Shown here piece after piece: positions 1-14,679 of a stretch of 14,679 bases of DNA. The first letter of the stretch is position 1, and each line of letters starts with the position of its first letter. Origin of the DNA: a virus (taxonomy: Duplodnaviria > Heunggongvirae > Uroviricota > Caudoviricetes); IMG/VR virus record IMGVR_UViG_2698536369_000025. One strand, given 5' to 3'. The notes beneath the pieces are model-generated. The model was not told where the DNA came from. It worked only from the letters and a program-made list of their open reading frames with translations, and ran no database searches. The position numbers and the translations under genes are program-made.

Positions 1-1254
1 ATGCTGGAACAAATGGGCATTGCCGCGAAGCAAGCCTCGTATAAATTAGCGCAACTCTCCAGCCGCGAAAAAAATCGCGTGCTGGAAAAAATCGCCGATG
101 AACTGGAAGCACAAAGCGAAATCATCCTCAACGCTAACGCCCAGGATGTTGCTGACGCGCGAGCCAATGGCCTTAGCGAAGCGATGCTTGACCGTCTGGC
201 ACTGACGCCCGCACGGCTGAAAGGCATTGCCGACGATGTACGTCAGGTGTGCAACCTCGCCGATCCGGTGGGGCAGGTAATCGATGGCGGCATACTGGAC
301 AGCGGCCTGCGTCTTGAGCGTCGTCGCGTACCGCTGGGGGTTATTGGCGTGATTTATGAAGCGCGCCCGAACGTGACGGTTGATGTCGCTTCGCTGTGCC
401 TGAAAACCGGTAACGCGGTGATCCTGCGCGGCGGCAAAGAAACCTGTCGCACTAACGCGGCAACGGTGGCGGTGATTCAGGACGCCCTGAAATCCTGTGG
501 CTTACCGGCGGGTGCCGTGCAGGCAATTGATAATCCTGACCGTGCGCTGGTCAGTGAAATGCTGCGTATGGATAAATACATCGACATGCTGATCCCGCGC
601 GGCGGGGCTGGTTTGCATAAACTGTGCCGCGAACAGTCGACGATCCCGGTGATCACAGGTGGTATAGGCGTATGCCATATTTACGTTGATGAAAGTGCAG
701 AGATCGCTGAAGCATTAAAAGTGATCGTCAACGCGAAAACTCAGCGTCCGAGCACATGTAATACGGTAGAAACGTTGCTGGTGAATAAAAACATCGCCGA
801 TAGCTTCCTGCCCGCATTAAGCAAACAAATGGCGGAAAGCGGCGTGACATTACACGCAGATGCAGCTGCGCTGACACAGTTGCAGGCAGGCCCCGCGAAG
901 GTGGTGGCTGTTAAAGCGGAAGAGTATGACGATGAGTTTCTGTCATTAGATTTGAACGTCAAAATCGTCAGCGATCTTGACGATGCCATCGCCCATATTC
1001 GTGAACACGGCACACAACACTCCGATGCGATCCTGACCCGCGATATGCGCAACGCCCAGCGTTTTGTTAACGAAGTGGATTCGTCCGCTGTTTACGTTAA
1101 CGCCTCTACGCGTTTTACCGACGGCGGTCAGTTTGGACTGGGTGCGGAAGTGGCGGTAAGCACACAAAAACTCCACGCGCGTGGCCCAATGGGGCTGGAA
1201 GCACTGACCACTTACAAGTGGATCGGCATTGGTGATTACACCATTCGTGCGTAA
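1..1254 (+). CDS. proA: gamma-glutamyl phosphate reductase (glutamate-5-semialdehyde dehydrogenase), full length 417 aa
   Basis: ATG at 1, TAA at 1252-1254. The 417-aa translation is recognisable along its whole length as enterobacterial ProA (recalled, not searched). GC-rich core-like composition and followed by tRNA-Thr as in the E. coli proA-thrW arrangement. Confidence 0.95.
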
Positions 1255-1368: not shown

Positions 1369-1444
1369 GCCGATATAGCTCAGTTGGTAGAGCAGCGCAT
1401 TCGTAATGCGAAGGTCGTAGGTTCGACTCCTATTATCGGCACCA
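1369..1444 (+). tRNA. thrW: tRNA-Thr, anticodon CGU, 76 nt including CCA
   Basis: GCCGATATAGCTCAGTTGGTAGAGCAGCGCATTCGTAATGCGAAGGTCGTAGGTTCGACTCCTATTATCGGCACCA. Acceptor stem GCCGATA/TATCGGC, D-loop AGTTGGTAGAGC, T-arm GGTTCGACTCC, 7-nt anticodon loop TTCGTAA giving anticodon CGT, encoded 3' CCA. thrW is a known integration site for P4-type integrases (established knowledge). Confidence 0.93.
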
Positions 1445-1524
1445 TTCTAACGTCTCGCCAAGTCTACTCAAGTATTTAAAAACCTCTTATAATCCGCATG
1501 TTAGCGCCCCTTTTAGTCTTTTGA

Positions 1525-1610
1525 CGTCTACTTAAGTACCCCAAAATCTACAGTCAATTGGGGGTACTTTTGGGGGTATTTGCTGTTCGGTTTAGTGGAG
1601 GTACCCCCAA
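1525..1610. promoter_or_regulatory. Repeat cluster between thrW and int: GTACCCC(C)AA in both orientations plus a direct repeat GTCTACT(C/T)AAGTA; putative integrase binding sites and/or int promoter-operator
   Basis: GTACCCCAAAA 1536-1546, TTGGGGGTAC 1558-1567 (inverted), GGGGGTA 1572-1578, GTACCCCCAA 1601-1610 abutting the int start. GTCTACTCAAGTA near 1461 and GTCTACTTAAGTA near 1525. Function is inferred from position only. Confidence 0.4.
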
Positions 1611-2825
1611 GTGAAACTCAATGCCCGTCAAATAGACACTGCCAAGCCAAAAGAGAAGGCTTACAAGCTGGCTGATGGTGGTGGTCTGTATCTCTTGGTA
1701 AAACCTAGTGGAGGAAAATATTGGCGCTTCAAGTATCGTGTAGCTGGTAAAGAGAAGCTGTTAGCACTAGGTGTGTATCCTGAAGTTACCTTGGCTGATG
1801 CTCGTGCAAAACGTGAAGAAGCTAAAAGGGGTATCGCTGGGGGTATCGATCCGATGGAAGCGAAACGAGAGGAAAAGATTGCCCGGGAAACGCAGTTAAA
1901 CAACACCTTCAAAGATATTGCCCTTGAGTGGCACAGCAGCAAATTAAAAAAATGGTCTGCTGGTTATGCTTCAGACATCCTCGAAGCCTTCAACAAAGAT
2001 GTGTTCCCTTACATTGGCAAAAAACCAATCGCCGAAATCAAACCACTTGAACTGCTGAATGTGCTGCGGCGCATCGAGGGGCGCGGTGCTACCGAAAAAG
2101 CCAAAAAAGTGAGGCAGCGATGTGGGGAAGTTTTCCGCTATGCAATTGTCACTGGACGTGCTGAGTATAACCCTGCACCGGATCTCACCAGCGCGATGCA
2201 AGGACATGAATCTAATCATTATCCTTTCCTCACAGCCAAAGAATTACCTGATTTTTTCAAGGCATTGTCCAGTTACTCAGGAAGTGCATTGGTTGTTATG
2301 GCGGCTCGTTTACTGATTATCACCGGTTTGCGGACTGGCGAACTGCGCGGTGCATTATGGGATGAAATCGATCTCAACAAGGCTATCTGGGAGATACCTG
2401 CTTCACGGATGAAAATGCGTCGCCCTCATGTAGTGCCTTTGTCTGAGCAGGCTCTTTCGCTTATTGGGCAGATTAAAGAACTAACTGGCAATTATCCGCT
2501 TATGTTTCCCGGCCGTAATGATCCAAGGAAAACAATGAGCGAGGCTAGCATAAACCAAGTATTTAAACGCATCGGCTATAACGGAAAGGTTACTGGTCAT
2601 GGCTTCCGGCACACTATGAGCACCATTTTGCATGAGCAGGGCTATAACACCGCGTGGATAGAGACACAGCTTGCGCACGTCGATAAAAACTCAATTCGTG
2701 GCACATACAACCATGCGCAATATCTGGATGGGCGGCGGGAAATGCTTCAGTGGTACGCTGATTATATGGATTCGCTCGAGCATGGCGGAAATGTGGTGCA
2801 TGGTGAGTTCGGAAAATGCGGGTGA
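1611..2825 (+). CDS. int: Site-specific tyrosine integrase, P4-like family (404 aa)
   Basis: GTG start 1611 preceded by GGAGG 1598-1602. N-terminus AKPKEKAYKLADGGGLYLLVKPSGGKYWRFKYRVAGKEKLLALGVYPEV is the typical P4-integrase N-terminal domain. C-terminal catalytic region carries R (TGLRTGELR), HGFRHT and terminal Y (RGTYNHAQY). Sits directly beside a tRNA gene. Confidence 0.93.
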   Translation: MKLNARQIDTAKPKEKAYKLADGGGLYLLVKPSGGKYWRFKYRVAGKEKLLALGVYPEVTLADARAKREEAKRGIAGGIDPMEAKREEKIARETQLNNTFKDIALEWHSSKLKKWSAGYASDILEAFNKDVFPYIGKKPIAEIKPLELLNVLRRIEGRGATEKAKKVRQRCGEVFRYAIVTGRAEYNPAPDLTSAMQGHESNHYPFLTAKELPDFFKALSSYSGSALVVMAARLLIITGLRTGELRGALWDEIDLNKAIWEIPASRMKMRRPHVVPLSEQALSLIGQIKELTGNYPLMFPGRNDPRKTMSEASINQVFKRIGYNGKVTGHGFRHTMSTILHEQGYNTAWIETQLAHVDKNSIRGTYNHAQYLDGRREMLQWYADYMDSLEHGGNVVHGEFGKCG

Positions 2826-2947
2826 CTGGTTGAGTATACAGTAGTAGACTTTGAGCGACGAAAGAAAAGGCTGTGTCTAGGGTCGCTCCCGAAAATCCGT
2901 ACACCTCGACGGACTGGTACAGCCACTACAGTAGAGGACGCTGAGGT

Positions 2948-3751
2948 GTGCGTATGATTGATATTCATGCCGAATTAAACGAATACAAAAAAGATTTTAT
3001 TTCTTTACGTGAATTTCTTGAGGTCGTGCTTAAGGTCGCTGGTGATGATTATGATGTTTCAGATGTCATAACTTGGATACTCAGGAGAATAAGCGGAGAA
3101 CATATCCGCCTGTACACAGTAAATGAATTTAAGCTGTTGGAATCTTTTTGTAACCCGTATCGGGATGAATTTGATAATGATGTTCTTTATAGAAATCTGA
3201 ATGCGGTTCGGAAACGTGGTTGTTTACCTGGTGAGAGGGATGAAAATGGTTTTCTGGTGTCCGGTTATTGGGAAGATCCCGAATTTGAGAACATTGGATT
3301 TATAAGGGGTGAAATTTTCGCAATTTTTCCCGATGTCCTTGACGCGTTAACGAAGCTGGAAGGCGCTAACTCTTCTGAAAATGACGAGGCACAAGGACGC
3401 GATATTGAAAAGAAAGAGTTGCGTACAGAGGATGATTTATTATCCCAAATCGCAATGCTGGAAAAAGAAAACGCAGAGTTAAGGGCAAGGATAGAGCAGT
3501 TAGAGCAAGAGCGCCCGATACACTTATATAAATACTGGGATAAAGACCCATTAGCTAAGGCTATTGAGATTAGAAACAGAGAGTGGGCCAATTACGATCC
3601 AGAAAATGATTTTGCCACCAGGGGAAATCAAGAAGCGATAACCAGGGAGCTTAAGCAGTGGGGGGCAAGTAATGCACTTGCAACGCTCATAGAGAGGACT
3701 GCCTGCCCTATTAACCGAGACAACAGCCAAAAGAACGCAAAGCCGGATTAA
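2948..3751 (+). CDS. Hypothetical protein, about 265 aa, acidic with a central coiled-coil (LLSQIAMLEKENAELRARIEQLEQER); no recognised domain
   Basis: ORF 2948..3751; the more likely start is ATG 2954, with GAGG 2943-2946 seven nt upstream. Lower GC than flanks (24/60 G+C counted over 3001-3060). Followed by a palindrome plus T-run. Function unknown. Confidence 0.7.
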   Translation: MRMIDIHAELNEYKKDFISLREFLEVVLKVAGDDYDVSDVITWILRRISGEHIRLYTVNEFKLLESFCNPYRDEFDNDVLYRNLNAVRKRGCLPGERDENGFLVSGYWEDPEFENIGFIRGEIFAIFPDVLDALTKLEGANSSENDEAQGRDIEKKELRTEDDLLSQIAMLEKENAELRARIEQLEQERPIHLYKYWDKDPLAKAIEIRNREWANYDPENDFATRGNQEAITRELKQWGASNALATLIERTACPINRDNSQKNAKPD

Positions 3752-3764
3752 CGCACCATACCGC

Positions 3765-3912
3765 ATACCCTGAGGGTGATTTACTGTTACCCTGAGGGTA
3801 TTTTTTTATCTTCCCCGTCAATTTTACCATCACCCTTAGGGTAGATTTCCTCCCGATTACCATCACCCTTAGGGTAGATTTCCTTCCGGTAACCATTAGG
3901 CCTGAGGGTATG
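3765..3912. repeat. Array of near-palindromic ACCCT-N-AGGGT boxes (5 copies) including a roughly 32-bp tandem duplication; first pair plus T7 run may act as terminator of the upstream gene, the rest as operator sites upstream of alpA
   Basis: ACCCTGAGGGT at 3767-3777 and 3789-3799 (followed by T-run 3802-3808); ACCCTTAGGGT at 3832-3842 and 3864-3874 inside the tandem repeat TTACCATCACCCTTAGGGTAGATTTCCT (about 3825-3855 and 3857-3887); half-site CCTGAGGGTA 3901-3910. Confidence 0.6.
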
Positions 3913-3978
3913 AAAATATTCGTTATTTCTGTGCCATGATTACCTCGTCAAATTGAGTAGACGTTATGAGGTAAATAT

Positions 3979-4176
3979 ATGTCAAATACGCTTATTCGTT
4001 TAACAGAAGTTCAGCGTAGAACTGGATATAGCAAGGCATGGATTTATCGCCTTATGGGGCAAGGTAAATTTCCTGCATCAGTTAAAATTGGCTCGCGAGC
4101 TATTGCTTTCGTTGAGAGTGAAATTGACGAGTGGATTAATCAGCGTATTGCGGAATCACGCGGAACAGCTACCTGA
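3979..4176 (+). CDS. alpA: AlpA-family (prophage CP4-57-type) helix-turn-helix transcriptional regulator / excisionase-like protein, 65 aa
   Basis: ATG 3979 with GAGG 3968-3971. Translation MSNTLIRLTEVQRRTGYSKAWIYRLMGQGKFPASVKIGSRAIAFVESEIDEWI is the canonical AlpA pattern (RL.EV...TG.S....Y.....G.FP..VK.G.R...W...E...W). Typical partner of P4-type integrases. Confidence 0.85.
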   Translation: MSNTLIRLTEVQRRTGYSKAWIYRLMGQGKFPASVKIGSRAIAFVESEIDEWINQRIAESRGTAT

Positions 4177-4253
4177 TTAAATGGCTACGGGGCTATTGCC
4201 CCCAGCTATCCACCAGCAAATAAAAGTAACTTAATTCGATAGCAGGAGTTTTT

Positions 4254-5054
4254 ATGAAATTTCCAAAAACGCCCGTACAGGGGCGGGGCTTCGTTCGGCC
4301 TGAAAACCAGAATCTGCAAAATTTCGGCGAAATTATCCCGATTATTTCCGGCGTTATTGGCGGGAGTGAAACCACTATTGTTAGCGCCAGAGCGTTACAT
4401 AAGGCGTTAGGTGTAGGGCGCGTTTTCCGTTCGTGGATCAAGGGGCGCATTGAAGAATACGGGTTCACGGAAGGCGTGGATTATGAGGTTGTTGAATATT
4501 TGAGCCGACCCGATCCGGTGAGCGCAAAATCTCGCCAGCAAACCGCTCTTGAGTACATCATCACAGTGAACATGGCGAAAGAACTGGCGATGGTCGAACG
4601 TACCGAACAGGGCCGCGCCGTTCGCCAGTACTTTATCAAATGCGAGGAGGAGCTACACAAGGTTGCGCCTGTTCGTTCCGCAGCGTTACGCCGGGAACTG
4701 AAAGCCCGTATCACCGTTGCCAGCTACTTTAAGCCGATGTGTGCCGCGCTGGAGGCGTACCGGGCTGAACTGGGTAAAAACACGTTCCAGCACCACTACA
4801 CCACGGAAGCCAATATGCTGGCGCGTATCGTGCTGGGTGGCATGACTGCAAAACAGTGGGCGCAGGCGAACGGCATCACAGGCGAACCACGCGACCACAT
4901 GAGCACGTTGCAGCTTGAGCACCTTTCTTACCTTGAGCAGAGCAATATCACGCTGATTGAGTTAGGCCAGGACTACCACCAGCGGAAAGCTGAATTAATT
5001 CGCCTTTCGCAGCGTTGGTTAGCCCGTCGCATGGAGGAAAACAGCCATGTGTAA
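4254..5054 (+). CDS. Phage antirepressor-like regulatory protein (AntA/Bro-N-like N-terminal domain), 266 aa
   Basis: ATG 4254 with AGGAG 4244-4248; TAA 5052-5054. N-terminal segment TIVSARALHKALGVGRVFRSWIKGRIEEYGFTEGVDYEVV resembles the AntA/Bro-N antirepressor fold (recalled pattern, not searched). Assignment to the antirepressor family is moderate; the CDS call is stronger. Confidence 0.7.
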   Translation: MKFPKTPVQGRGFVRPENQNLQNFGEIIPIISGVIGGSETTIVSARALHKALGVGRVFRSWIKGRIEEYGFTEGVDYEVVEYLSRPDPVSAKSRQQTALEYIITVNMAKELAMVERTEQGRAVRQYFIKCEEELHKVAPVRSAALRRELKARITVASYFKPMCAALEAYRAELGKNTFQHHYTTEANMLARIVLGGMTAKQWAQANGITGEPRDHMSTLQLEHLSYLEQSNITLIELGQDYHQRKAELIRLSQRWLARRMEENSHV

Positions 5055-5324
5055 CGCTCTGACCGTTACAAAAAGAGAAAGCGCCCCGTTGCCGGAGCGC
5101 CTTTGTGAACGAATAGCCTACTGCGCCATATTGCTTACTGTCTACGAGGCAGATTATAGCGTTGTGGTCGCACAGAGTGAAGGCGCTGATCACCGTTACT
5201 ACAGCACGCCAGAAATGCAGAATATTTTGCTGCAAAATGTCGTTGGTCACGCTGTCCGGAAAGCAAAAAATTTTGCTGGTGGCGCGACTGATGCGATTTT
5301 TTCTGGTCGCCCGGTGCTGATCAA

Positions 5325-5627
5325 CTACTCCTGTTCTTTGGCCTTGCGGCGCTGGAGTTCTTCACGCGCGACGGTGACGAGTTGCCCGATCTCCTCGGCA
5401 GCTTTGACACCGATTTTTTCCACCTGCGCCAGTGCATCGAGCGAAGAAACCAGGGGATTTTCTCCTCTTCCTTCTGCCTGGCGGCGAGCGATCTCACCGC
5501 ACATGGCGGTTACTATGAATCCGGCGTTGCTTTCGCCGTCCAGTTTTACGGATTCCATGCCCTCCATAACATCGTGGGGAACCCTGATCGTTGTCATTTG
5601 CGATTTTGCATTTTTGTATACAGACAT
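5325..5627 (-). CDS. Small putative DNA-binding protein (ribbon-helix-helix-like N-terminus TTIRVPHDVMEGM), 100 aa, convergent with the upstream gene and divergent from the small-ORF operon
   Basis: Minus-strand ATG at 5627-5625, stop (CTA on plus) at 5325-5327; GGTGA-like SD upstream on the minus strand. Sits next to an operator-like repeat array. It fully overlaps a longer plus-strand ORF (5047..6201) judged spurious in this part. Confidence 0.6.
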   Translation of the reverse strand: MSVYKNAKSQMTTIRVPHDVMEGMESVKLDGESNAGFIVTAMCGEIARRQAEGRGENPLVSSLDALAQVEKIGVKAAEEIGQLVTVAREELQRRKAKEQE

Positions 5628-5835
5628 AGTTAATCACCAATTTGTTATGTGTATATCACTATACACAAAAGTGAGATATAAAAACACTTGCAATGTATAT
5701 CACCACAATATAATGTGTATCTCACATGGAGGTCGCTATGTATCTCACAATGAGCGATTCATAAAAACGACGAAACCCGGCAGTGCGCGAACACTAACCG
5801 GGCTTCTAACCAAACCGTTAAATGAGGTAACGATT
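5628..5835. promoter_or_regulatory. Divergent promoter/operator region with five copies of TGTAT(A/C)TCAC in both orientations, including a perfect 8-4-8 palindrome
   Basis: Palindrome TGTGTATA-tcac-TATACACA 5648-5667; GTGAGATATA 5671-5680 (inverted copy); TGTATATCAC 5694-5703; TGTATCTCAC 5717-5726 and 5739-5748. Lies between the minus-strand RHH-like gene and the plus-strand operon start at 5836. Confidence 0.55.
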
Positions 5836-6201
5836 ATGGCTGGAACACAGCATACCCAAACTCACCCTAAATTTATATACACCTTCCTGGCGGTGCACCG
5901 TGATTGCATGGCTGACGGTAAAAACACTGTACACGTAGCCGCTGATACGCTGGTGGATGCCTGCAAGATGCTCAATGATATGGGCTATATCTCGGCAACA
6001 TGGAAAGGGCGCGAAGAAAACACGCTGTTTATTCAGAAATGCGAAAACAATTTTATATGGCGTTTTATCGCCCTGAGCACAGCACAACCGCGTGTAATTC
6101 ACATCGAGGCCACCAGCGAACAGGAAGCACGCCAGCAATCTCCTGATGGCTGCGTGATGGTATTCGCTGCCCGCATTCGCCAGGAGGTGGAACATGTGTA
6201 A
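5836..6201 (+). CDS. Hypothetical protein, 121 aa, first gene of a coupled small-ORF operon
   Basis: ATG 5836 with GAGG 5824-5827 eight nt upstream; TAA 6199-6201. Same frame as the long ORF 5047..6201, but only this part has an RBS and does not overlap the minus-strand gene. Confidence 0.7.
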   Translation: MAGTQHTQTHPKFIYTFLAVHRDCMADGKNTVHVAADTLVDACKMLNDMGYISATWKGREENTLFIQKCENNFIWRFIALSTAQPRVIHIEATSEQEARQQSPDGCVMVFAARIRQEVEHV

Positions 6202-6418
6202 TGCAACATGGCCTGATGCAGCGGTAGACGCTATCAAAACGCTGATGGATTCACTTGTTGAGATTTCTGCTATCGCTGGTGTGGCGCATAAACACGCAGC
6301 CAGAGAATCAGAATGCATCTCCCATTATTTAGCATTTGTGCAGCTAAAAGCCGATCAGGCACTGGATAAGGCCGGAAAAATTATCATGGCTGATGTGCAG
6401 GAGGTGCACCATGCATAA
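6194..6418 (+). CDS. Hypothetical small protein, 74 aa
   Basis: ATG 6194 overlaps the stop of the previous gene; AGGAGGTGG 6182-6190 upstream. Translational coupling pattern. Confidence 0.6.
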   Translation: MCNATWPDAAVDAIKTLMDSLVEISAIAGVAHKHAARESECISHYLAFVQLKADQALDKAGKIIMADVQEVHHA

Positions 6419-6776
6419 CCTGTCAATTTCTGACCTTAACAGCATTCAGTTTGACGAGAAATTTACCGGGCAGTTGCTGGTCAATGTGGAGAACGGGCGC
6501 ATAGTGCGTAATTACCACCTGCCGGATGGTGCAATTGCCGGAAGCGTTGAAGCATTGCTGGAACTGGCGGAACGTGCGCGACTGATTAAGCCGTCAACGA
6601 GCCATCACGATGATGATCTGCATTTTACCGGGCGTATGGTGAGTCACTACGAAAACGGCGTTGAAGTATCCCGCGAACGGCTGCGTGATGATTGCTGTTT
6701 CGGCACACTGCCGGAATTTATCGAGTTGCTGAACAGTTGCGGTTATCAGGTCATTCAGGGGGGTAAACATGCGTGA
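6411..6776 (+). CDS. Hypothetical protein, 121 aa
   Basis: ATG 6411 with AGGAGG 6399-6404 six nt upstream; overlaps the previous stop (6416-6418). The six-frame ORF begins at 6393 but lacks an RBS there. Confidence 0.65.
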   Translation: MHNLSISDLNSIQFDEKFTGQLLVNVENGRIVRNYHLPDGAIAGSVEALLELAERARLIKPSTSHHDDDLHFTGRMVSHYENGVEVSRERLRDDCCFGTLPEFIELLNSCGYQVIQGGKHA

Positions 6777-7002
6777 TGATCGTTTTAATTCCCTGAAACG
6801 GGAATTTGATGGCGCACCGGAAGATGCAGCGGGCGCATTGTTGAGCGTTGCTGACATGATGAAAGCTGCATATTTTCTTATCAATACCAGTGGCTACAAG
6901 TCAGAGGGTGAAATGATTCTTAGTATTGCGTCGGACTATGCGGAATATGTGGCAGAGACGCGTTACAGAAGAAAATTCACGGAGGATGTAAGCCATGCAT
7001 AA
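6769..7002 (+). CDS. Hypothetical small protein, 77 aa
   Basis: ATG 6769 overlapping the previous stop (TGA 6774-6776); G-rich SD 6758-6763. Confidence 0.6.
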   Translation: MRDDRFNSLKREFDGAPEDAAGALLSVADMMKAAYFLINTSGYKSEGEMILSIASDYAEYVAETRYRRKFTEDVSHA

Positions 7003-7195
7003 TCATGAAGCGCATGTACCCGTAGTGCTTAATGTGCCAGATGATTTCACCGGACGCGTACTGGTTTACCTGGATAAAGGGAAAGTGAAATCACAATGCC
7101 GACTGAAAAGTAATGAGATTGTTGGTTCTCCTGAATTTTTTTCTGAACTTTGTATTCGTGCGGAAATAAAACCGGAACTGCTGACAGGAAAATAA
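6995..7195 (+). CDS. Hypothetical small protein, 66 aa
   Basis: ATG 6995 with GGAGGA 6981-6986 eight nt upstream; overlaps the previous stop (7000-7002). Confidence 0.55.
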   Translation: MHNHEAHVPVVLNVPDDFTGRVLVYLDKGKVKSQCRLKSNEIVGSPEFFSELCIRAEIKPELLTGK

Positions 7196-7199
7196 AACC

Positions 7200-7514
7200 A
7201 TGAAAAAGAAAAATTCTGGCTTTACTGCCAGCGGCCTCTCTCGGCCTGAAATCCGCCCCGGCGATATTTTCCGGGATAAATACGGCAGCACGATAACGGT
7301 AAAAACCGTCGATGATTTTCGCGTGACCTATATCCGCGAAGGTTATACGCATCCCTGCGTGTCGTCACATATGCGCTTTGAAAGGGAATTCATCCTGGTA
7401 AGTAAAGCGCCACTAGCAGAATTAAGCGACATCGACAAAATCATGAGCGTCACGGGCGCGGAACGCATCAGGACAGTACGTGAAATTATTCGTGAGCGGG
7501 GAGGTAAGAAGTGA
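7200..7514 (+). CDS. Hypothetical protein, 104 aa
   Basis: ATG 7200 four nt after the previous stop; its stop TGA 7512-7514 overlaps the GTG start of the replication gene. Confidence 0.6.
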   Translation: MKKKNSGFTASGLSRPEIRPGDIFRDKYGSTITVKTVDDFRVTYIREGYTHPCVSSHMRFEREFILVSKAPLAELSDIDKIMSVTGAERIRTVREIIRERGGKK

Positions 7515-9643
7515 AAAACGCACCGAATTTAAAATATCAGCCGAAGGATAAATTCACCGAGGTAATCATTTTTGCCGGGACGGATGCTTACGCCCATGCT
7601 CAACACTGGATTGAAAGCGAAGGACGAAAACACGGCGATAACGTGCCACCTGTTTATCTGGGGCCAAAGCAACTGGCAGACCTGGCGAATATCCGCATTA
7701 TTGACGCGAAACGCCGCTTTGCACGTGTCTATCTCGCGGGGGAGATAGAACCAATCCAGATCAATGCTATCGCTGAAAAGCTGGCGCTGGCTGGCGTACA
7801 GGAGGCGAAATTATACAAAGGTATCACCGACCGGGAGCCGGAGAACTGGCACGACTACCTGCAACGGATCCGCGAACAGGCCGAACGCGGGGAAACCATG
7901 ACGGAGGAAGTCAGGAGAGTGGGGGGATTGCCCGGAAGAACAGATCCCATGAAACCGCATATCACCGAAAAAGATGGTGCGCTCTGGTATGTCGAGCCAA
8001 TACCCAATACCAGAGCAGAGGAGCTGAATCATAAGGAAACCTGGTTGAGTGACAGGATGCGCACAGCGGGTATTGGTAATGACGGTCGGGAAGCGTATCT
8101 GATAATTGAAATGATCCCGGAAGGAACACAGAAAATTATTTACGAAGCGATGCCGCGCAATGAAATCGGTATGCCAGCAGGATGGGCGAGGTTACGTGGA
8201 CGGGGTGTTGCAATCACCACCAGCGCCCATTTACTGAATAAACTGGCGGAATACCTGCAACGTCAGGGAGATCGTACTGTGTGGGAGGTCACATCAACAG
8301 CCGGATGGCATTGTGGAGCCTATGTTATGCCAGATGGTGAGGTGATTGGTGTACCGGATCGTCCAGTGGCATTCTGTGGCGGATCTGCAGCCATCAAAGG
8401 CTATATCGTCAGGGGGACGGTACAGGAATGGAGGAATAATGTCGCCTCCCTGATGAGAGGTAATCACTCAATGATGCTTGGGGTACTGGTCGGACTGGCA
8501 GCACCCCTTAATTCTCTTGTGGGCGGAAGTTGTTTTGGTATCCACCTTTTCGCGCAGTCGTCAGCAGGGAAAACCACGACGGTGGAAGCTGCCACCAGTC
8601 TTTATGGCGATCCTGAAATGCTCAAACTTTCGTGGGATGCCACCCGGCACGGACTGACGGTGGAAGCTGCCGCACGTAATGATGGCTTTATCCCCATTGA
8701 TGAAATTGGTCAGGGAGGAAGGATTAATGACATCGCGCAATCCGCCTACAGCCTGTTTAACGGTGTGGGGAGAATTCAGGGACGAAAAGATGGCGGCAAT
8801 CGTGCAGTAATGCGCTGGAAAATAGCGGCACTAAGCACAGGGGAAGAAGATTTTGAGACCTTCCTGTTAAAAGGGGGGATCACCCCAAAAGCCGGGCAAC
8901 TGGTGCGGCTGCTAAGCGTTCCCTTTACCGATACAACGGTTTTTAACGGGTATGACGATGGTGATCAACATGCCAGAGCAATAAAGCGACTTTCATCAAA
9001 TTATTGTGGAGCTGCGGGGCGTGAGTGGGTGCGCTGGTTATCCGCTCATAAGGAACTGGCTATTAACACCACTTCCGATAAAGAAAATACCTGGCTGGGA
9101 AATCTGCCTGAAAATGCATCGTCACAGGTCAGACGTGTGGCTTCACGCTTTGCCATGCTGGATGCGGCCGGAGAACTTGCCACCGCAATTACTGGCTGGA
9201 CAGCCGAAGAATGCCGGGCAGCAACACAACGGGCTTTTGATGACTGGTTACAGGATTTCGGGCTGGAAAACCGGGAAAAATACCAGGTCATCAGCCGCGC
9301 CCGTGATTTTATTCAGCGCCATGCCCTGAGCCGTTTTCAGCCTTATACCTACGGGAAAAGCAATGGAAATATGGATAACCACTATGCATCCCGTATAAAC
9401 AACCTTGCAGGGTATCTTGTCAGTGGTAAGCGTGAGGATGGAAAACCCGAATATCACATTATCCCGTCAGTGTTTGATGGCGAAATTTTATGCGGCATAT
9501 CCAGGAACTTTGGGTGTCAGGCGCTGGAGGAAGCCGGAATGCTGGTTTGTGCAGAACCCGGTCGCTGGACATCGAAAACGGTGAAGATTAACGGAACACA
9601 GCAGCGATTTATCGTGCTGATTGACCAGGCTGAAGACGAATAA
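7511..9643 (+). CDS. Putative replication initiation protein of the element: P-loop NTPase, primase/helicase-like (DUF927-type), 710 aa
   Basis: GTG 7511 with GGGGAGG 7494-7500. Walker A HLFAQSSAGKTT and Walker B-like GFIPIDEIGQ in the central region; conserved TAGWH motif; comparable in size and position to P4 alpha-type proteins. An iteron array lies immediately downstream. Family assignment is from recalled motifs. Confidence 0.8.
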   Translation: MKNAPNLKYQPKDKFTEVIIFAGTDAYAHAQHWIESEGRKHGDNVPPVYLGPKQLADLANIRIIDAKRRFARVYLAGEIEPIQINAIAEKLALAGVQEAKLYKGITDREPENWHDYLQRIREQAERGETMTEEVRRVGGLPGRTDPMKPHITEKDGALWYVEPIPNTRAEELNHKETWLSDRMRTAGIGNDGREAYLIIEMIPEGTQKIIYEAMPRNEIGMPAGWARLRGRGVAITTSAHLLNKLAEYLQRQGDRTVWEVTSTAGWHCGAYVMPDGEVIGVPDRPVAFCGGSAAIKGYIVRGTVQEWRNNVASLMRGNHSMMLGVLVGLAAPLNSLVGGSCFGIHLFAQSSAGKTTTVEAATSLYGDPEMLKLSWDATRHGLTVEAAARNDGFIPIDEIGQGGRINDIAQSAYSLFNGVGRIQGRKDGGNRAVMRWKIAALSTGEEDFETFLLKGGITPKAGQLVRLLSVPFTDTTVFNGYDDGDQHARAIKRLSSNYCGAAGREWVRWLSAHKELAINTTSDKENTWLGNLPENASSQVRRVASRFAMLDAAGELATAITGWTAEECRAATQRAFDDWLQDFGLENREKYQVISRARDFIQRHALSRFQPYTYGKSNGNMDNHYASRINNLAGYLVSGKREDGKPEYHIIPSVFDGEILCGISRNFGCQALEEAGMLVCAEPGRWTSKTVKINGTQQRFIVLIDQAEDE

Positions 9644-9674
9644 AACCGCCTACGCTCGCAGAGGGTCAAAAATC

Positions 9675-9949
9675 GCGGGATATGCGGGATATCGGGATAT
9701 GAAAAATATATTATATAGATATCAATTACTTATGTGTCGTTATCGTATCCCGCCATATCCCGCCGTATCCCGGTATTTTGGTTTACGAATGGTTTAAAAA
9801 CAAACGAAATCACTGTATCCCGGAACGTATCCCGCAATATGTTATTGATGCATAAGCAAAAAAAAACTTACCGGGATATGGCGGGATACGAAAAATCGCA
9901 TAACATAATGAAAAATAAGTTGTTTTTTGTTTGTATCCCGATATCCCGG
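9675..9949. repeat. Iteron array / putative origin of replication: about 12 copies of CGGGATA(T/C) in direct and inverted orientation flanking an AT-rich stretch
   Basis: GCGGGATAT at 9675-9683 and 9684-9692, CGGGATAT 9693-9700; AT-rich 9701-9744; inverted copies GTATCCCGCC 9745-9754, ATATCCCGCC 9755-9764, GTATCCCGG 9765-9773, 9815-9823, GTATCCCGC 9827-9835; CCGGGATAT 9871-9879, GGCGGGATA 9880-9888; GTATCCCG 9933-9940, ATATCCCGG 9941-9949. Confidence 0.6.
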
Positions 9950-10103
9950 TAAAAAATGGTTTTTTACGCCTTATAGAGTACAGAAAAGTGATTGCTCAAA
10001 TTTTGTATTACAGGTGGCTACCGTCAGCCATCCGACCTGGAAAAGGCATAAAAGCAGATATGTCATTTTGACAATCAGACTGTTTTGATGATTACACGCC
10101 GAT

Positions 10104-10661
10104 ATGACGGCAACAATGATGGGGAAGAGCATGCCAAAGCTGACCATTAACAGAAAGCCAAAAGGCATTTACGGCACGCCGCAGAAAACGACGCAGGCGG
10201 CACAGGAGCAGGATAAAACCACATCGGCACATAAAGTGATGCCCGGTAACCAGAAAGCGCAGCAGAAGCCCACAGGGGCGACACCGTGGCGGCATATGAC
10301 CAAACGGCAGCGCAAAAACCGCAGGCGCGTTAACCGCCTCACTGAGTTGTGGCCTGAATTATTCAGCCGGGAAGCACCGAAGCCGCTTAAGGTGGGGATA
10401 TTCGACGACCTGATGCAGGATCTCGCCGTCAGGGGGCTGGCATTCGGGCCAGGGGCATTACGTGCGACGCTGGCATCTTATGCGCAGTGTCCGCGCTATT
10501 ACCGCGCCTTAATGGCTGGTGGGGTACGCTACGACCTGAAAGGCCAGCCGTGCGGCGAGGTGACACCACAGGAACAACAGGACGCAGAAACGCGGCTGGT
10601 GGCGCTGAATGAGAAGCGCAAACGTCAGCGCCGGGCAGCAAAGGAGAAAACAGGTGCATGA
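10104..10661 (+). CDS. ProQ/FinO-family RNA-binding protein (185 aa as drawn; true start may be an internal ATG near 10131)
   Basis: Segment PLKVGIFDDLMQDL...LRATLASYAQCPRYYRALMAGGVRYDLKGQPCGEV parallels the ProQ N-terminal FinO-like domain (PLKIGIF.DL......LR.AL..Y......Y.......R.DL.G.PCGE); basic N- and C-terminal tails. Confidence 0.8.
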   Translation: MTATMMGKSMPKLTINRKPKGIYGTPQKTTQAAQEQDKTTSAHKVMPGNQKAQQKPTGATPWRHMTKRQRKNRRRVNRLTELWPELFSREAPKPLKVGIFDDLMQDLAVRGLAFGPGALRATLASYAQCPRYYRALMAGGVRYDLKGQPCGEVTPQEQQDAETRLVALNEKRKRQRRAAKEKTGA

Positions 10662-10945
10662 TTCACGACAGCAAAGCGGAAGCACTGGAAGCGCGTGGTC
10701 TGTACCGGAGAGCGGCGGAACGGTGGGCTGAGGTCATTATGCTGGCGAACGGTGACAAGGCACGGGAACAGGCGGCAAAGCGCCGTGCGGAATGTATCCG
10801 CAAGGCAGCACGCCCACCAGCAAAGCAGGATAATTTCGGGGAGATGCGCGAAACCATCAGCCGGGCACATGCCGGAATGGGATTACATCAGCCCAATGGT
10901 AAGGCATTCAGGAAATATCCTGGATCGAAAAATTGCAGTCAGTGA
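10658..10945 (+). CDS. PerC-family transcriptional regulator-like protein, 95 aa
   Basis: ATG 10658 overlaps the stop of the previous gene (ATGA). N-terminal AEALEARGLYRRAAERWAEVIM matches the PerC/Pch motif (LE.KGLWRRAA..W..VM), recalled from memory. Confidence 0.65.
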   Translation: MIHDSKAEALEARGLYRRAAERWAEVIMLANGDKAREQAAKRRAECIRKAARPPAKQDNFGEMRETISRAHAGMGLHQPNGKAFRKYPGSKNCSQ

Positions 10946-11055
10946 CGGAGGCCGGGATTTTTCCCGGCCTTATTGCATTTCATTAATTGCAATATTTATT
11001 GCTATCATTTCATTTTGTGCAATTGTTGTGGTTGTTATTATTCGGGAGAAAAATC

Positions 11056-11223
11056 ATGAAAGGTCACGGAGTAAAGCCAGTTTTACTTTCCCGGAGGCAG
11101 ATTGAAGCCCTGCAACGTATCCAGGACGAAGAGCGTCAGAAATCTGTGCTTGGTGTGGCGCCGTCGATTCATGTTATTGCCCGGCAACTGATGGATAAGG
11201 CACTTAAAGAGGTGAGACTGTGA
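11056..11223 (+). CDS. Hypothetical small protein, 55 aa (MKGHGVKPVLLSRRQIEALQRIQDEE...)
   Basis: ATG 11056 with GGGAG 11044-11048; stop overlaps the next start. The longer six-frame ORF from 10987 has a hydrophobic, RBS-less leader, so the shorter form is preferred. Confidence 0.55.
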   Translation: MKGHGVKPVLLSRRQIEALQRIQDEERQKSVLGVAPSIHVIARQLMDKALKEVRL

Positions 11224-11492
11224 AATTAAATATCAGAGTGGATAAACGCCAGCTATGGCAGAAAAAAGAGAACAGCGAGGCATTCAGGGCGTTGCTGGTG
11301 GAAAATCTTCAGCACCGGTTCAGTGGAGAGTTGCCTGATGCGCTGGGGAAGAAACTGGAATCTCTGACAGTGGAAATTGGCGATTATGGTTTTGTTGATG
11401 TTGAAAGCACGACAGCCAACACAGAAATCGTAAAACAGGTCGTCAACGATGTAATGAAAACCACGCTTAGTCAGCCATCCTGGCGTAACTGA
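11220..11492 (+). CDS. Hypothetical protein, 90 aa
   Basis: GTG 11220 overlapping the previous stop (GTGA); followed by a GC-rich hairpin at 11499-11519. Confidence 0.55.
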   Translation: MKLNIRVDKRQLWQKKENSEAFRALLVENLQHRFSGELPDALGKKLESLTVEIGDYGFVDVESTTANTEIVKQVVNDVMKTTLSQPSWRN

Positions 11493-11498
11493 ATCAAC

Positions 11499-11520
11499 AA
11501 GGGGCAGTTATTGCCCCTTT
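11499..11520 (+). terminator. Putative intrinsic terminator hairpin
   Basis: AAGGGGCA (11499-11506), loop GTTAT, TGCCCCTT (11512-11519), then T. The U-tract is short, so efficiency is uncertain. Confidence 0.4.
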
Positions 11521-11590
11521 CCTCCATATCCACAACGCATTCCTTTTCCGCATGAAATTATTTTTATCGTATATGCATGAGGTGAGCCAC

Positions 11591-12118
11591 ATGTTGATGA
11601 GTAAAGCTGAATACGCCAAACACAAAGGCGTAAGCCGCCAGACAGTTTACGACTGGATCGAGAAAGGCGAAGTGGTTATGTCCGGTAAAAAAATCGATGT
11701 GGAAGCGACAGAGCAGCGGAACAGCCCACCAGCACAGGGAAAAGACGCAGTTTCTGAAATGTGGCCAGAAAGAACGCTGGAAATGACGTGGGGCGAGTTC
11801 TGGAAAGCAGTTAAGGCCAGAGACGGTAAAATCCCTGCACCAGTAACGGACGATGACATACGGCAGCGTGTGCTGAATGCAGCCGGGGAATTAGGCTGGG
11901 AAGTGCAATTTCTTGATGGTGGTGCTATCTGCCTTGAGGATTGCGACGGGCAGCATTACTTTGAACAATACAATTTGCGGGGTAATGCCTGGCTGGCAAT
12001 TCGTATGTTGCGTTGTGAACTATGCTATGTTGCCAGCGATTGTCCCGATGAACAGGACACATGGAGTGAGGCAGGACTAAACGCCCTGGCTGAATGGGAA
12101 AAATCAGGCCATCAATGA
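11591..12118 (+). CDS. Putative HTH DNA-binding protein with Cys-rich C-terminal region, about 175 aa
   Basis: Preferred start ATG 11591 with GAGGTGAG 11579-11586 (the six-frame ORF starts at 11552 without an RBS). N-terminus SKAEYAKHKGVSRQTVYDWIEKGEV is a helix-turn-helix of the excisionase/MerR-like type. C-terminus has CLEDCDGQH...CELCYVASDC. TGA 12116-12118. Confidence 0.7.
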   Translation: MLMSKAEYAKHKGVSRQTVYDWIEKGEVVMSGKKIDVEATEQRNSPPAQGKDAVSEMWPERTLEMTWGEFWKAVKARDGKIPAPVTDDDIRQRVLNAAGELGWEVQFLDGGAICLEDCDGQHYFEQYNLRGNAWLAIRMLRCELCYVASDCPDEQDTWSEAGLNALAEWEKSGHQ

Positions 12119-12122
12119 CCTC

Positions 12123-12326
12123 AAAAAGTGTCAAGTTGAGCAGCTTTCCAGGTTGACACTTTACACTCTGAACGCGAAAAAGTGTCAACCTCGCTGTAAA
12201 CCCCGTCGTTACTGGCTTTGCGCCAGATTTACCACGTCAAAAAACCGAAAAATCGCGAAAAGTGTCAAGTTGCCATGCTTAGAAATGCTAAGGTTTGATA
12301 AGGTTTTTCGCGAAAAAGTGTCAACC
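12123..12326. repeat. Array of five AAAGTGTCAA boxes (two flavours: ...TGTCAAGTTG and ...TGTCAACC), one inverted; putative operator/iteron sites
   Basis: AAAAAGTGTCAAGTTG 12123-12138; inverted GGTTGACACTTT 12151-12162; GCGAAAAAGTGTCAACC 12174-12190; CGCGAAAAGTGTCAAGTTG 12254-12272; CGCGAAAAAGTGTCAACC 12309-12326. Lies between the HTH gene and a small ORF, upstream of the AT-rich cargo. Confidence 0.6.
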
Positions 12327-12356
12327 AGCCCCCTAAGATTTCCTAAGGTGTAAACC

Positions 12357-12536
12357 ATGACCATCACCGAAGCCGATATGCTGGAGATGATCCGCAGCAT
12401 TGCCGAAATCAAACAATCAGCAAGCAAAATTAACAGGTGTTCAGCGCCTGTTTCCGTTGTGCTGCAACAGGAACGCCACCAGCAGGATGATGTGAGGCCG
12501 TATCAGTGGAAGAAACTGGACAGGCTGCGACGGTGA
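12357..12536 (+). CDS. Hypothetical small protein, 59 aa (MTITEADMLEMIRSIAEIKQSASKINR...); below the size cutoff of the supplied ORF track
   Basis: ATG 12357 with AAGGTG six nt upstream; TGA 12534-12536; host-like GC; last gene before the compositional drop. Confidence 0.45.
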   Translation: MTITEADMLEMIRSIAEIKQSASKINRCSAPVSVVLQQERHQQDDVRPYQWKKLDRLRR

Positions 12537-12929
12537 GCGGAGCGTTACGGTAAGCCAACAGCCAAGCCAAACATTAAGTCTACAGGTAAGGTTGTTTTTT
12601 TGCAGGTGGCATTAATTTGTATGTTGGTTTGAGGAGCATTTTTACTGAGACTGTCTGTTCTGGTTAGTTTTTTCGTATGATATACACCTCATCAAAATTG
12701 TCCGACAGTGTGGAGCGGCGTGGCGGGGAGAGTATTGTGTGCTAGAGATTATAGTTACACTTTAATCTACGACACGATCGTAATTTTTCACTCTTCTTTT
12801 CAGATAAGCTACTACTGAGTTCACAAAAATAACATTATTTTATATCCATGCGTTATCTTTATCTGATATTAATGTGCTGTTCGGTCTTTTTTTGACTGCA
12901 AACGGCATGAATCATATTAAGGAAACCAA

Positions 12930-13091
12930 GTGAAAATATCTTTTTTTGGCGTAAATAACTTTAGGACAATATCAGGTGGCATTGGTAATAATAGAATAAT
13001 ATTTAAAGATACCAATACGCTTTTCATTTACGGGGCAAATAATGCTGGAAAATCAACTTATTTAAAAGCATATATGTTTTTTTTACAGTAA
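12930..13091 (+). CDS. N-terminal fragment (53 codons) of an OLD-family ABC-type ATPase carrying the Walker A motif; out of frame with the downstream part because of a T8 run
   Basis: GTG 12930 with AAGGAAA 12919-12925. Translation VKISFFGVNNFRTISGGIGNNRIIFKDTNTLFIYGANNAGKSTYLKAYMFFLQ* has the same opening architecture as P2 Old/GajA-type ATPases (as recalled). TAA 13089-13091 follows the T8 run 13077-13084. Confidence 0.6.
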   Translation: MKISFFGVNNFRTISGGIGNNRIIFKDTNTLFIYGANNAGKSTYLKAYMFFLQ

Positions 13092-13173
13092 TGAAAAACC
13101 TATCATTGATGATTTCTTTAAACGAGACGACAATAATTCTATTGAGTTCGAATTAGAAGTTCAACTTGATGAC

Positions 13174-14679
13174 TTGGATAAAGAAAGAATAGAAGCCAAA
13201 GCACCGAAGCAAAAGGAAAGTTATAAGAAGTATTTAAATAATGATTTTATTAGAATTAAGAAAGTATGGAGTAAAAATGGAACAAGAATAGAGGATAAAA
13301 ATTATACTTATGATTATAGTAAAGGAGATAGCGGCGAGTATGATGAAGTTGGATATGCAACAATTGGTTTGCATCAGGTCTTCCAATCTTGTTTGCCAAA
13401 ACCTGTATTTATAAAGGCTATGCCAACAGAGGAAGAAGCTAAGAAGATTCTTAATGAAATCCTAAAGATGATGGCTGAAAATACACTTAAAACATCTGAT
13501 CTTGATGAATTAAAAGCAGCTCAGAATAAAATAAAAGAATTACAAGACAAAATGTATGATCCAGAATTAATTGAAACCTATCAGAATTCAGTTAACGGAT
13601 ACTTTAACAAGATATTCGGTGATACTGCTATATGCTTCAAAGATCAAAAAGATAGGGTTGTTTGGACGGAGAATAAGCTTGGCAGAGATTTTGAAATTGA
13701 GTTTATGAAAAAAAATAGCCAAGGGGAGTTTGATGGCAATATCCCTTCAAGTTATAGCAGTGTAGGTCATGGAACTATTAGGACTGCAATATTTACATTA
13801 TTATTGATGAGAGATGTAGCAGAGCGTTTTGAAAGAAGGCTTGGACGTAAAGATTACATGGTTCTGTTTGAGGAGCCTGAGCTATTTCTCTATCCTAGAA
13901 TGGTGAAGGAACTTCGTGAATTGATTTATCAGGTGAGCACTGAAGACCTTCCATATCAAGTACTTTGTGCCTCACATTCATCTTCCATGATAGATCTTTC
14001 AAAGCCTAAATCTTCGATAATACGATTAGTTAATAATTCTACTGGAACTAAATCATATCAAATTAATGATCAATTTTTGAAGGATGCAAAAGGCATTGCT
14101 ACAAATGCTGAACTTAAACAAGAAATGTATGAAGTTTTGAGGTTCAACCCTTATATTTGTGAATCATTCTACGCTGATGAGGTACTTCTGATTGAGGGGC
14201 CAACAGAAGAAATAATATGTAGAGCTTTTTTACAAGAAACCCCATCAGATAAATCTATATTCGTATTGAACTGTGGTACGGTTAATAACATTCCTTTTTA
14301 TCAAAAAATCTTCTCAAGGTTTAATATAAAATATCATGTGATCTGTGATACAGATAAAGCAGAAATAGTTACCGTAGATCAATCTGGCAATGCAGATTTT
14401 GATTCTGGAATACAGAAAACAATTTCAGAACAGTATAGGAATGATTGTACTGCAATGAATGGTAATATAGGACTACTTCGAACTCATAACATTACATTTG
14501 AACCTGCTCATCAAGATGTTAGTATTCCTGACTTTTTGAGATTTGTTGATTGCGGTGATAGAAGCAAACCATTTAATGCAAACTTGTACTGGAAGGATAT
14601 TTTAAGGCCAAATATATCACATCAAGATATAAATAAAGTGCCTATAATTAAGTATTTGAATGAAATAATAGCACATTAA
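13174..14679 (+). CDS. OLD-family (overcoming lysogenisation defect) ATPase-Toprim nuclease-like protein, C-terminal about 500 aa; candidate anti-phage defence gene; frameshifted relative to its N-terminal Walker A fragment
   Basis: Open frame runs back to 13066 without a stop; the track start at 13174 is TTG. Motifs: GHGTIRTA (Q-loop/signature-like), VLFEEPELFLYP (Walker B), CASHSS (H-loop), then Toprim-like LLIEGPTEE and a DTD acidic motif (VICDTDK). AT-rich (15/60 and 21/60 G+C in two counted 60-nt samples, against 32/60 in the replication gene). TAA is the last codon of the window. Confidence 0.8.
   Translation: MDKERIEAKAPKQKESYKKYLNNDFIRIKKVWSKNGTRIEDKNYTYDYSKGDSGEYDEVGYATIGLHQVFQSCLPKPVFIKAMPTEEEAKKILNEILKMMAENTLKTSDLDELKAAQNKIKELQDKMYDPELIETYQNSVNGYFNKIFGDTAICFKDQKDRVVWTENKLGRDFEIEFMKKNSQGEFDGNIPSSYSSVGHGTIRTAIFTLLLMRDVAERFERRLGRKDYMVLFEEPELFLYPRMVKELRELIYQVSTEDLPYQVLCASHSSSMIDLSKPKSSIIRLVNNSTGTKSYQINDQFLKDAKGIATNAELKQEMYEVLRFNPYICESFYADEVLLIEGPTEEIICRAFLQETPSDKSIFVLNCGTVNNIPFYQKIFSRFNIKYHVICDTDKAEIVTVDQSGNADFDSGIQKTISEQYRNDCTAMNGNIGLLRTHNITFEPAHQDVSIPDFLRFVDCGDRSKPFNANLYWKDILRPNISHQDINKVPIIKYLNEIIAH

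Follow-up and report, generated by a model that had tools for sequence, protein, structure and literature searches.

What kind of mobile element has entered the threonine tRNA gene thrW in the IMG/VR record IMGVR_UViG_2698536369_000025, and by what route could it travel? The whole stretch analysed, referred to below as the window, is 14,679 nucleotides long and contains the left end and most of an island that starts in the 3' end of thrW. Based on protein-family, RNA-family and comparative genomic evidence, we assign this island, with a probability of about 80%, to the class of phage-inducible chromosomal islands (PICIs), as an ordinary and probably functional member of the enterobacterial AlpA type represented by EcCIMP1 and EcCICFT073. 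We prefer a PICI to a P4-like satellite because the backbone genes are those of EcCIMP1 and EcCICFT073, and because Int and Vis/AlpA are the only P4 proteins with a match. The element class is thus known; new here are two variable slots, a TerS-like helix-turn-helix (HTH) gene with an array of AAAGTGTCAA repeats in the place that rpp-cos occupies in EcCICFT073, and, on a PICI backbone, a homologue of the P2/186/P4 cos.

Integration site and extent of the island

The first-pass annotation, a reading of the DNA letters by a model, had proposed the order tRNA, integrase, orphan gene, alpA, antirepressor, operon of small open reading frames (ORFs), 710-aa replication protein and iterons, and all of these features were recovered in or near the same places (Table 1). 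From thrW to the last base the DNA forms one co-oriented block, with the gene at 5325..5627 on the minus strand, and its G+C content is unlike that of proA. Integration at thrW, also proposed there, is borne out by the attachment (att) sequences: the core TCCTATTATC has a single copy in the window, at position 1428 in the 3' end of thrW, and att repeats recur in relatives. A second copy, which would mark attR, was looked for across the window and not found, in agreement with the first reading; in relatives attR copies lie at 27347 in EC11 (contig L001), at 28899 in L002 and at 13841 in GCA_027979285.1 (L007). EC11 and GCA_027979285.1 are the nearest same-site relatives, the latter with 99.35% identity to window positions 3958-14679, and in both a stretch of 763 bp separates the nuclease gene that closes the window from TCCTATTATCGCACCATT, after which come a yagP' fragment and paoD. 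None of the complete RefSeq E. coli genomes covers more than 80% of the window. With attR at this distance from the window end in such near-identical relatives, the element is predicted to measure ~14.0 kb from core to core, and the window would hold all but the last ~760 bp. The earlier estimate of more than 13.2 kb therefore stands insofar as the element exceeds the portion in the window, but its length is no longer open-ended.

Table 1. Features of the window, in order of position
Feature	Position	Strand	Evidence or remark
proA	1-1254	+	window begins at its ATG
thrW, tRNA-Thr(CGU)	1369..1444	+	ARAGORN; Rfam tRNA, 71.8 bits; attL in its 3' end
attL core TCCTATTATC	1428..1446	+	inside the repeat TCCTATTATCG(G)CACCATT
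Four arm-type integrase-binding repeats TTGGGGGTA	1537..1610	1537(-), 1558(+), 1570(+), 1602(-)	between attL and int
Tyrosine integrase (int), P4 type	1611..2825	+	Pfam Arm-DNA-bind_3, Phage_int_M, Phage_integrase
int-alpA RNA motif, Rfam RF02996	2870..2937	+	45.5 bits vs gathering score 35.8
Variable slot 1 (int to alpA): 265-aa orphan protein	2954..3751	+	coiled coil
AlpA-family regulator	3979..4176	+	Pfam, 2.4e-19
AntA/AntB-family antirepressor-like protein	4254..5054	+	Pfam, 2.4e-23; PHROG anti-repressor, 2e-41
YlcI/YnfO-family protein, 100 aa	5325..5627	-	phrog_6522, 1.1e-58; RefSeq name in relatives
Coupled small-ORF operon: Icd-like (5836-6201), orf74, orf121, orf77, orf66, DUF4222 (7200-7514)	5836..7514	+	PHROG, Pfam
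Pri-Rep, 710-aa DUF927 protein	7511..9643	+	Pfam, 1.1e-40; PHROG DNA primase, 1.9e-85
Iteron origin, 12 CGGGATA units	9676..9948		both orientations, opposed sets around AT-rich stretches
ProQ/FinO-like gene	10131-10661	+	Pfam, 9e-24; also given as 10104-10661
PerC-like gene	10658-10945	+	Pfam, 2.8e-32
Terminator-like hairpin	10948-10971		after the PerC gene; hairpin scan
HTH175, 175-aa protein	11591..12118	+	N-terminal TerS/Xis/Rpp-type winged HTH; alpha/beta C-terminal domain
Five exact AAAGTGTCAA repeats	12125..12324	four direct, one inverted	within 200 bp
orf59, conserved small ORF	12357..12536	+	
P2/186/P4 cos-site homologue	12681..12760	+	cohesive-end equivalent GGCGTGGCGGGGAGAGTAT at 12717-12735
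Variable slot 2: class-1 OLD (P2 Old-like) ATPase-TOPRIM nuclease gene	12930..14679	+	window ends at its stop codon

Several features agree with those by which PICIs are recognised. The integrase and attL, which together with attR make up the att-site and integrase requirement of Fillol-Salom 2018, are present in the window, and attR is present in the relatives; alpA, a predicted regulator, lies downstream of int. Phage structural or lysis genes were not detected in Pfam and PHROG scans of the main ORFs, and the predicted 14.0 kb falls within the ~10-15 kb typical of the class. A tandem pair of the TTGGGGGTA 9-mer stands 71-83 bp ahead of attR in every thrW relative. Empty sites are also common: a synthetic query joining proA-thrW to the DNA that follows attR found one uninterrupted match in 948 of 5,426 complete E. 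coli genomes. The first-pass annotation had named a pattern that would speak against its own reading (identical content in all relatives, no att repeat and no empty site). The locus shows the reverse on each count, with variable content, att repeats in relatives and the empty alleles just mentioned.

The backbone is not confined to thrW. In ECamp52 it occupies a tRNA-Gly site with 99.8% identity over 8.3 kb, including a Rep-ori module that is 100% identical, together with another integrase, and in other genomes a third chromosomal site adjoins yicC. The contigs L004, L006, L010 and L011 combine the backbone with other integrases, either at the tRNA-Gly site by actS or at the site by yicC. As to thrW itself, the island of EC11 is preceded by a partial copy of thrW, and a prophage with tail and baseplate genes (L001 1-12030) separates this copy from thrW; from this arrangement thrW appears to act as host of tandem elements. 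In K-12, thrW is occupied by CP4-6.

Relation to EcCIMP1, EcCICFT073 and P4

EcCIMP1 (L003), the PICI of E. coli MP1, is inserted in the tRNA-Thr gene between proA and yagU with the att core TCCTATTATC, and its excision and transduction need the P22-like helper phage Kapi1, int and alpA (Pick, Stadel & Raivio, ISME J 2025, PMC11773190). The island in the window shares this site and this core, an integrase with 96.5% identity, AlpA (81%), AntA (59%), a DUF927-type Rep (42% to the EcCIMP1 TOPRIM-DUF927 protein over 613 aa) and PerC (46%); DUF4222 and Icd-like genes are common to both, in different places. In contrast, EcCIMP1 is 20 kb long, possesses P22-like ejection-protein genes, a second alpA and a P4-type pair of C4 and isrK RNAs, and is devoid of HTH175, the AAAGTGTCAA array, orf59, the P2-type cos and the CGGGATA iterons.

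The small RNAs deserve separate mention. No C4/CI RNA was found in the window by Rfam at E values up to 0.1, whereas such RNAs are present in P4, in EcCIMP1 and in the P4-like satellite contig L045 (C4 loci at L137 8420-8692 for P4, L003 26600-26827, accompanied by an isrK-like RNA, for EcCIMP1, and L045 7180-7420). Since EcCIMP1, like P4, has both the C4 antisense RNA and the isrK-like RNA, and both are missing from the window and from its closest relatives, the regulation of the replication operon differs among PICIs that share one att site.

The EcCICFT073 or O-island 51 type (Fillol-Salom et al. 2018, 2019; PMC6092414, PMC6739421) has in common with the window the order YlcI/YnfO-family gene, Icd-like gene, small ORFs, DUF4222, Pri-Rep, iteron origin and PerC. 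Identities to the EcCICFT073 homologues are 58% for the YlcI/YnfO-family protein, 74% for the Icd-like protein, 56% for orf77, 54% for DUF4222, 44% for the N-terminal domain of Rep and 52% for PerC. At the 3' end, both islands also have the gene of a winged HTH protein, together with a cis site and one small ORF. However, the protein of EcCICFT073 is RppA, of 144 aa, with a helical C-terminal dimerisation domain and a lambda-type cosN beside it, whereas the C-terminus of its counterpart in the window is an unrelated alpha/beta domain; the Rep body and iterons of EcCICFT073, the model of a lambda/phi80-dependent PICI, are also unlike those in the window.

The comparison with P4 is more restricted. 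When all 13 P4 proteins were searched against the window by tblastn, Int (43%) and Vis/AlpA (37%) matched, and no match was obtained for alpha, epsilon, sid, delta, psu or the cI region. Pfam, PHROG and tblastn searches together revealed no sid, psu, delta or capsid gene, as had been noted from the start. Of the P4 hallmarks, the window therefore presents Int, Vis/AlpA and a sequence homologue of the P2-type cos, and is without Psu, Delta, Sid, epsilon and Alpha. The arm repeats that flank the att core are a further resemblance: in the annotated attP of P4, three repeats separate int from the core, a fourth lies within int itself and a tandem pair stands beyond the core, a layout similar to ours. 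A cos of P2 type also lies directly upstream of the variable defence slot in the P4 order psu-cos-gop (Rousset 2022, as summarised in PMC13586616), as its homologue does in the window. The two elements differ in the P4 genes and CI/C4 RNA listed above and in the attP, which lies on the opposite side of int from the cargo. The original label "satellite/P4-like" was right about a satellite, and is replaced by PICI in its second half, for which the cos homologue beside the 3' cargo slot offers partial support in one respect.

Replication module and origin

The proposal that the locus carries the int/alpA/pri-rep satellite backbone, with its own Rep and an iteron origin, is upheld by Pfam, by PHROG and by the CGGGATA array, whose 12 copies within 273 bp compare with 1.4 expected in the whole window and are far above chance. 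In Gram-negative PICIs the origin follows pri-rep and is built from two sets of iterons that enclose AT-rich DNA (PMC6092414), and this order, Pri-Rep followed by two iteron sets flanking an AT-rich region, is found here. Upstream, the small ORFs at 5836-7514 have start/stop overlaps of 8 nt and 4 nt, which fit translational coupling.

The same Rep and the same CGGGATA array are found in ECamp52, and the copy in L004 is 100% identical. EC11 has a different primase, and its iterons are GTAGACAGTT; by these comparisons, iterons are exchanged together with the body of Rep. The first ~130 codons of Rep (window 7499-7894 versus L001 18224-18619) are nonetheless 95% identical to the otherwise different primase of EC11. 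This suggests a swappable N-terminal domain without a role in origin specificity, as the iterons differ.

The 3' module and the P2-type cos homologue

At the 3' end of the backbone, HTH175, a repeat array and orf59 form a conserved module, which had no BLAST match among 50,697 phage records. IMG/VR contains 46 contigs with HTH175, mostly of 12-17 kb. For the C-terminal domain of this protein no convincing match was obtained among solved structures. Two identities were considered and rejected. HTH175 is not Rpp, as there is no PDB sequence match, BLASTP aligns the HTH alone and the C-terminal fold is unrelated; nor is it a mimic of the P2 TerS protein gpM, for which hhalign gave a probability of 0.1%. 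The packaging module of EcCICFT073-type PICIs, an Rpp of 139-154 aa next to a lambda-type cosN, is likewise absent from the window, and a search for this cosN (GGGCGGCGACCT, with up to 3 mismatches) yielded chance-level matches alone.

The array itself is well conserved. AAGTGTCAA, the 9-nt core of AAAGTGTCAA, is present in 4-6 copies after the HTH175 gene in 42 of the 46 IMG/VR relatives, and such arrays also occur in L001, L002, L004 and L007-L009. We infer that HTH175 may bind the AAAGTGTCAA array, with a role in packaging specificity, interference or regulation. At both of its ends orf59 is similar to the small ORF located after cos in EcCICFT073, and 91 of the 5,426 complete E. coli genomes carry the gene. 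A homologue of HTH175 with 36% identity was also seen at L045 13726-14238; this contig is a canonical P4-like satellite, with int, psu, delta, sid and alpha, and the homologue occupies its far end.

Downstream of orf59 lies a cos homologue that is too short for BLAST and was spotted by eye before pattern and profile searches were applied. Its GGCGTGGCGGGGAGAGTAT matches the 19-nt cohesive ends, taken from the GenBank records, at 17/19 positions for phage 186 and at 15/19 for P2 and P4, where 0.01 chance matches are expected, and the sequences flanking 12717-12735 align with the P2/186/P4 cos as well. A profile of 96 P2/P4 cos regions, built without the window's own family, matched window positions 12681-12760 at E = 3.7e-8, and also matched L009 and L002; it had no match in EcCIMP1 or EcCICFT073. 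An exact scan of IMG/VR for GGCRTGGYGGGGAGAGYAT gave 118 contigs, among them 17 P2-like contigs (beside the portal gene), ~89 P4-like contigs and 4-5 of the window's family. The version of those P2-like and P4-like contigs, GGCGTGGCGGGGAGAGCAT, is one base off that in the window (18/19 identity). Among the 46 contigs with HTH175, 14 have a cos-type site. It never changes strand, lies 564-1,854 nt downstream of the gene and comes in five sequence versions.

The surroundings of this site are reminiscent of P4. The cos homologue is directly upstream of slot 2 and oriented as in the P4 order psu-cos-gop. In relatives, a remnant of an integrase gene lies between the cargo and attR, which by homology would place it ~200-380 bp past the window end. 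Given a cos upstream of the cargo and an integrase remnant after it, the right end copies the P4 order cos-cargo-int. In L007 this remnant (13278-13457, minus strand) corresponds to residues ~274-333 of a tyrosine integrase (E = 4e-12).

Possible transfer and competing explanations

By analogy with EcCIMP1 and EcCICFT073, the cycle of the island would begin with a helper phage that activates alpA. AlpA would then switch on the island genes, Int would excise the island at TCCTATTATC, Rep would fire the origin, and the resulting concatemer would be packed into helper capsids, to be re-integrated in thrW of a new host. Packaging is the weakest link in this scheme, and the cis site may be the P2-type cos, the AAAGTGTCAA array bound by HTH175, or both. 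That the cos homologue is functional and that P2-like phages are the helpers is a tentative proposal from sequence comparison, which we judge somewhat more doubtful than probable. That the homologue keeps to one position and one strand and has been retained in several versions favours a function, whereas its divergence from all phage cos sites seen and its absence in complete relatives elsewhere fit debris left by recombination with a P4-like hotspot. A head of P2/186 size would have room for two island copies (~28 kb), considering genomes of 33.6 kb for P2 and 30.6 kb for 186.

Should this site work, the island could represent a hybrid not yet described, a possibility on which we would not lean heavily. 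A PICI backbone would have adopted a P4 solution, with a P2/186-type cos upstream of a defence slot and with P2-like (Peduoviridae) helpers in place of lambdoid or P22-like ones. Without Sid, Psu and Delta, two copies would fill a full-size P2 head. HTH175 and the AAAGTGTCAA array would then constitute a novel type of packaging-specificity or helper-interference factor, analogous but not homologous to Rpp, and the cos and the integrase remnant would offer homology for exchanging defence genes with P4-like hotspots.

Some observations weigh against the main reading, a functional PICI. The right end was placed from relatives (99% identical over the right part) and not from this genome. The presence of other elements at thrW, in K-12 and in EC11, would conflict with the original definition of PICIs, which asks for att sites free of prophages. 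The cos profile finds nothing in the complete relatives at the other two integration sites, and the homologue in the window is at least one base away from every P2-like cos found. Finally, as lambda-type cosN, Rpp and capsid-size genes are missing, no characterised PICI supplies a packaging model.

In one alternative the island is immobile, a decayed relic fixed at thrW whose cos homologue is debris of an old recombination with a P4-like satellite. The frameshifted nuclease gene described below, the integrase remnant between cargo and attR in relatives, and a cos homologue found in five diverged versions and missing from many relatives would all suit such a history. We nevertheless regard it as improbable: all backbone ORFs are intact and match full-length homologues, modules with 99-100% identity at different sites and in unrelated strains suggest that movement was recent, relatives retain undamaged arm sites and att repeats, and the empty site is widespread. 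Even less probable is an integrative mobilisable or defence island unrelated to satellites, which would replicate after excision and move by conjugation or generalised transduction. Such an element could account for the own replicon, for the defence cargo slots and for the FinO/ProQ-family gene, a family best known from conjugative plasmids; however, a relaxase or oriT-like function is absent among the annotated ORFs, the synteny and homology are with two PICIs of demonstrated phage-mediated transfer, and the island has both a TerS-type HTH gene and a cos homologue. Genuine membership of the P4 family, with P2-like helpers used through Sid, Psu and Delta, is scarcely tenable, since the P4-type integrase, the Vis homologue AlpA, the P4-like arrangement of arm repeats around the core and a cos oriented as in cos-gop directly upstream of the cargo are offset by the absence, in tblastn, of five of the seven P4 core genes, by the lack of C4/CI RNA in Rfam and by backbone genes that are those of EcCICFT073 and EcCIMP1.

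We therefore retain the PICI assignment, which has implications beyond this locus. By way of PICIs, virulence regulators and genes against phages pass at high frequency from one enterobacterium to another, and the present island defines a well-delimited sub-family of them, with at least three integration sites and an orf59 module in the 91 complete E. coli genomes counted above. Should the P2-type cos prove functional, two unrelated satellite lineages, P4 and PICI, would share P2-like phages as helpers, and models of helper range and of defence-gene flow would change.

The variable slots and the Old-type nuclease

The two slots were defined by comparing ten relatives, as regions in which gene content changes between flanks that are 90-99% identical. 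Slot 1 holds an orphan protein for which Pfam, PHROG and PADLOC searches returned no family. It has 31 homologue clusters, all enterobacterial, and a structural search with its AlphaFold2 model (pLDDT 74) gave no meaningful neighbour. Elsewhere this slot is taken by unrelated ORFs, with lengths of 215, 237 and 260 aa, or by a protein kinase.

Slot 2 runs from ~12,600-12,680 to the last ~500 bp before attR. The AT-rich nuclease gene reported by the first-pass annotation is indeed there, in DNA with a G+C content of 0.30-0.38 over 12.5-14.5 kb, but its real start is the GTG at 12930, which precedes a Walker A motif, and its frame is broken. A run of eight T at 13077-13084, in place of seven in EC11 and L007, cuts the first 53 codons from the rest, so that the single intact ORF expected of a class-1 OLD system is found in EC11 and L007 and is interrupted by a +1 frameshift in the window; the extra T may mark a pseudogene or be a sequencing error in the homopolymer. 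The OLD-TOPRIM and AAA_15 Pfam domains are located at 13174-14679, and PADLOC gives Old as the best model, with 1e-50 in the window and 2e-62 in EC11, where the gene is intact. Like P2 Old, which belongs to the old-tin locus, this is a single-gene system with ATPase and TOPRIM architecture adjoining cos; it differs in its opposite orientation to cos, in being AT-rich and in the frameshift. The defence hotspot of P2 and P4 is kept adjoining cos (PMC13586616); according to the same study, PICIs have no close homologues of the P2/P4 defence genes.

The nuclease gene also occupies slot 2 of EC11, L007 and L008. Other relatives have there DUF4747 with a partner, SieB, Abi_2 with a 532-aa protein, GmrSD_N with HEPN, or DUF3800 with a partner. 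We propose that both slots carry genes of benefit to the host, here the orphan and the gene of an abortive-infection nuclease of the Old type, whose copy in this strain is broken. Being clearly bounded, they can be mined for new defence genes, and the 265-aa orphan is one candidate.

Regulatory genes and minor features

The ProQ/FinO-like and PerC-like genes had been read as distal cargo. This view has to be abandoned, as both genes are kept in all relatives and belong to the conserved backbone. The YlcI/YnfO-family gene is divergent from the replication operon and probably encodes a small repressor. RgdR was considered as a possible identity of this protein; an RGD motif at residues 20-22 is absent from it, as read from its sequence. 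The divergent control region between this gene and the Icd-like gene (5628-5835) contains TGTATATCAC-type repeats. A symR-like Rfam match at 5769-5841 on the minus strand reached 35.7 bits against a gathering score of 61 and was set aside as probably due to chance.

The int-alpA RNA motif follows shortly behind the stop codon of int and marks the left border of slot 1. It is found at L004 6514-6582 and L011 1316-1383 too.

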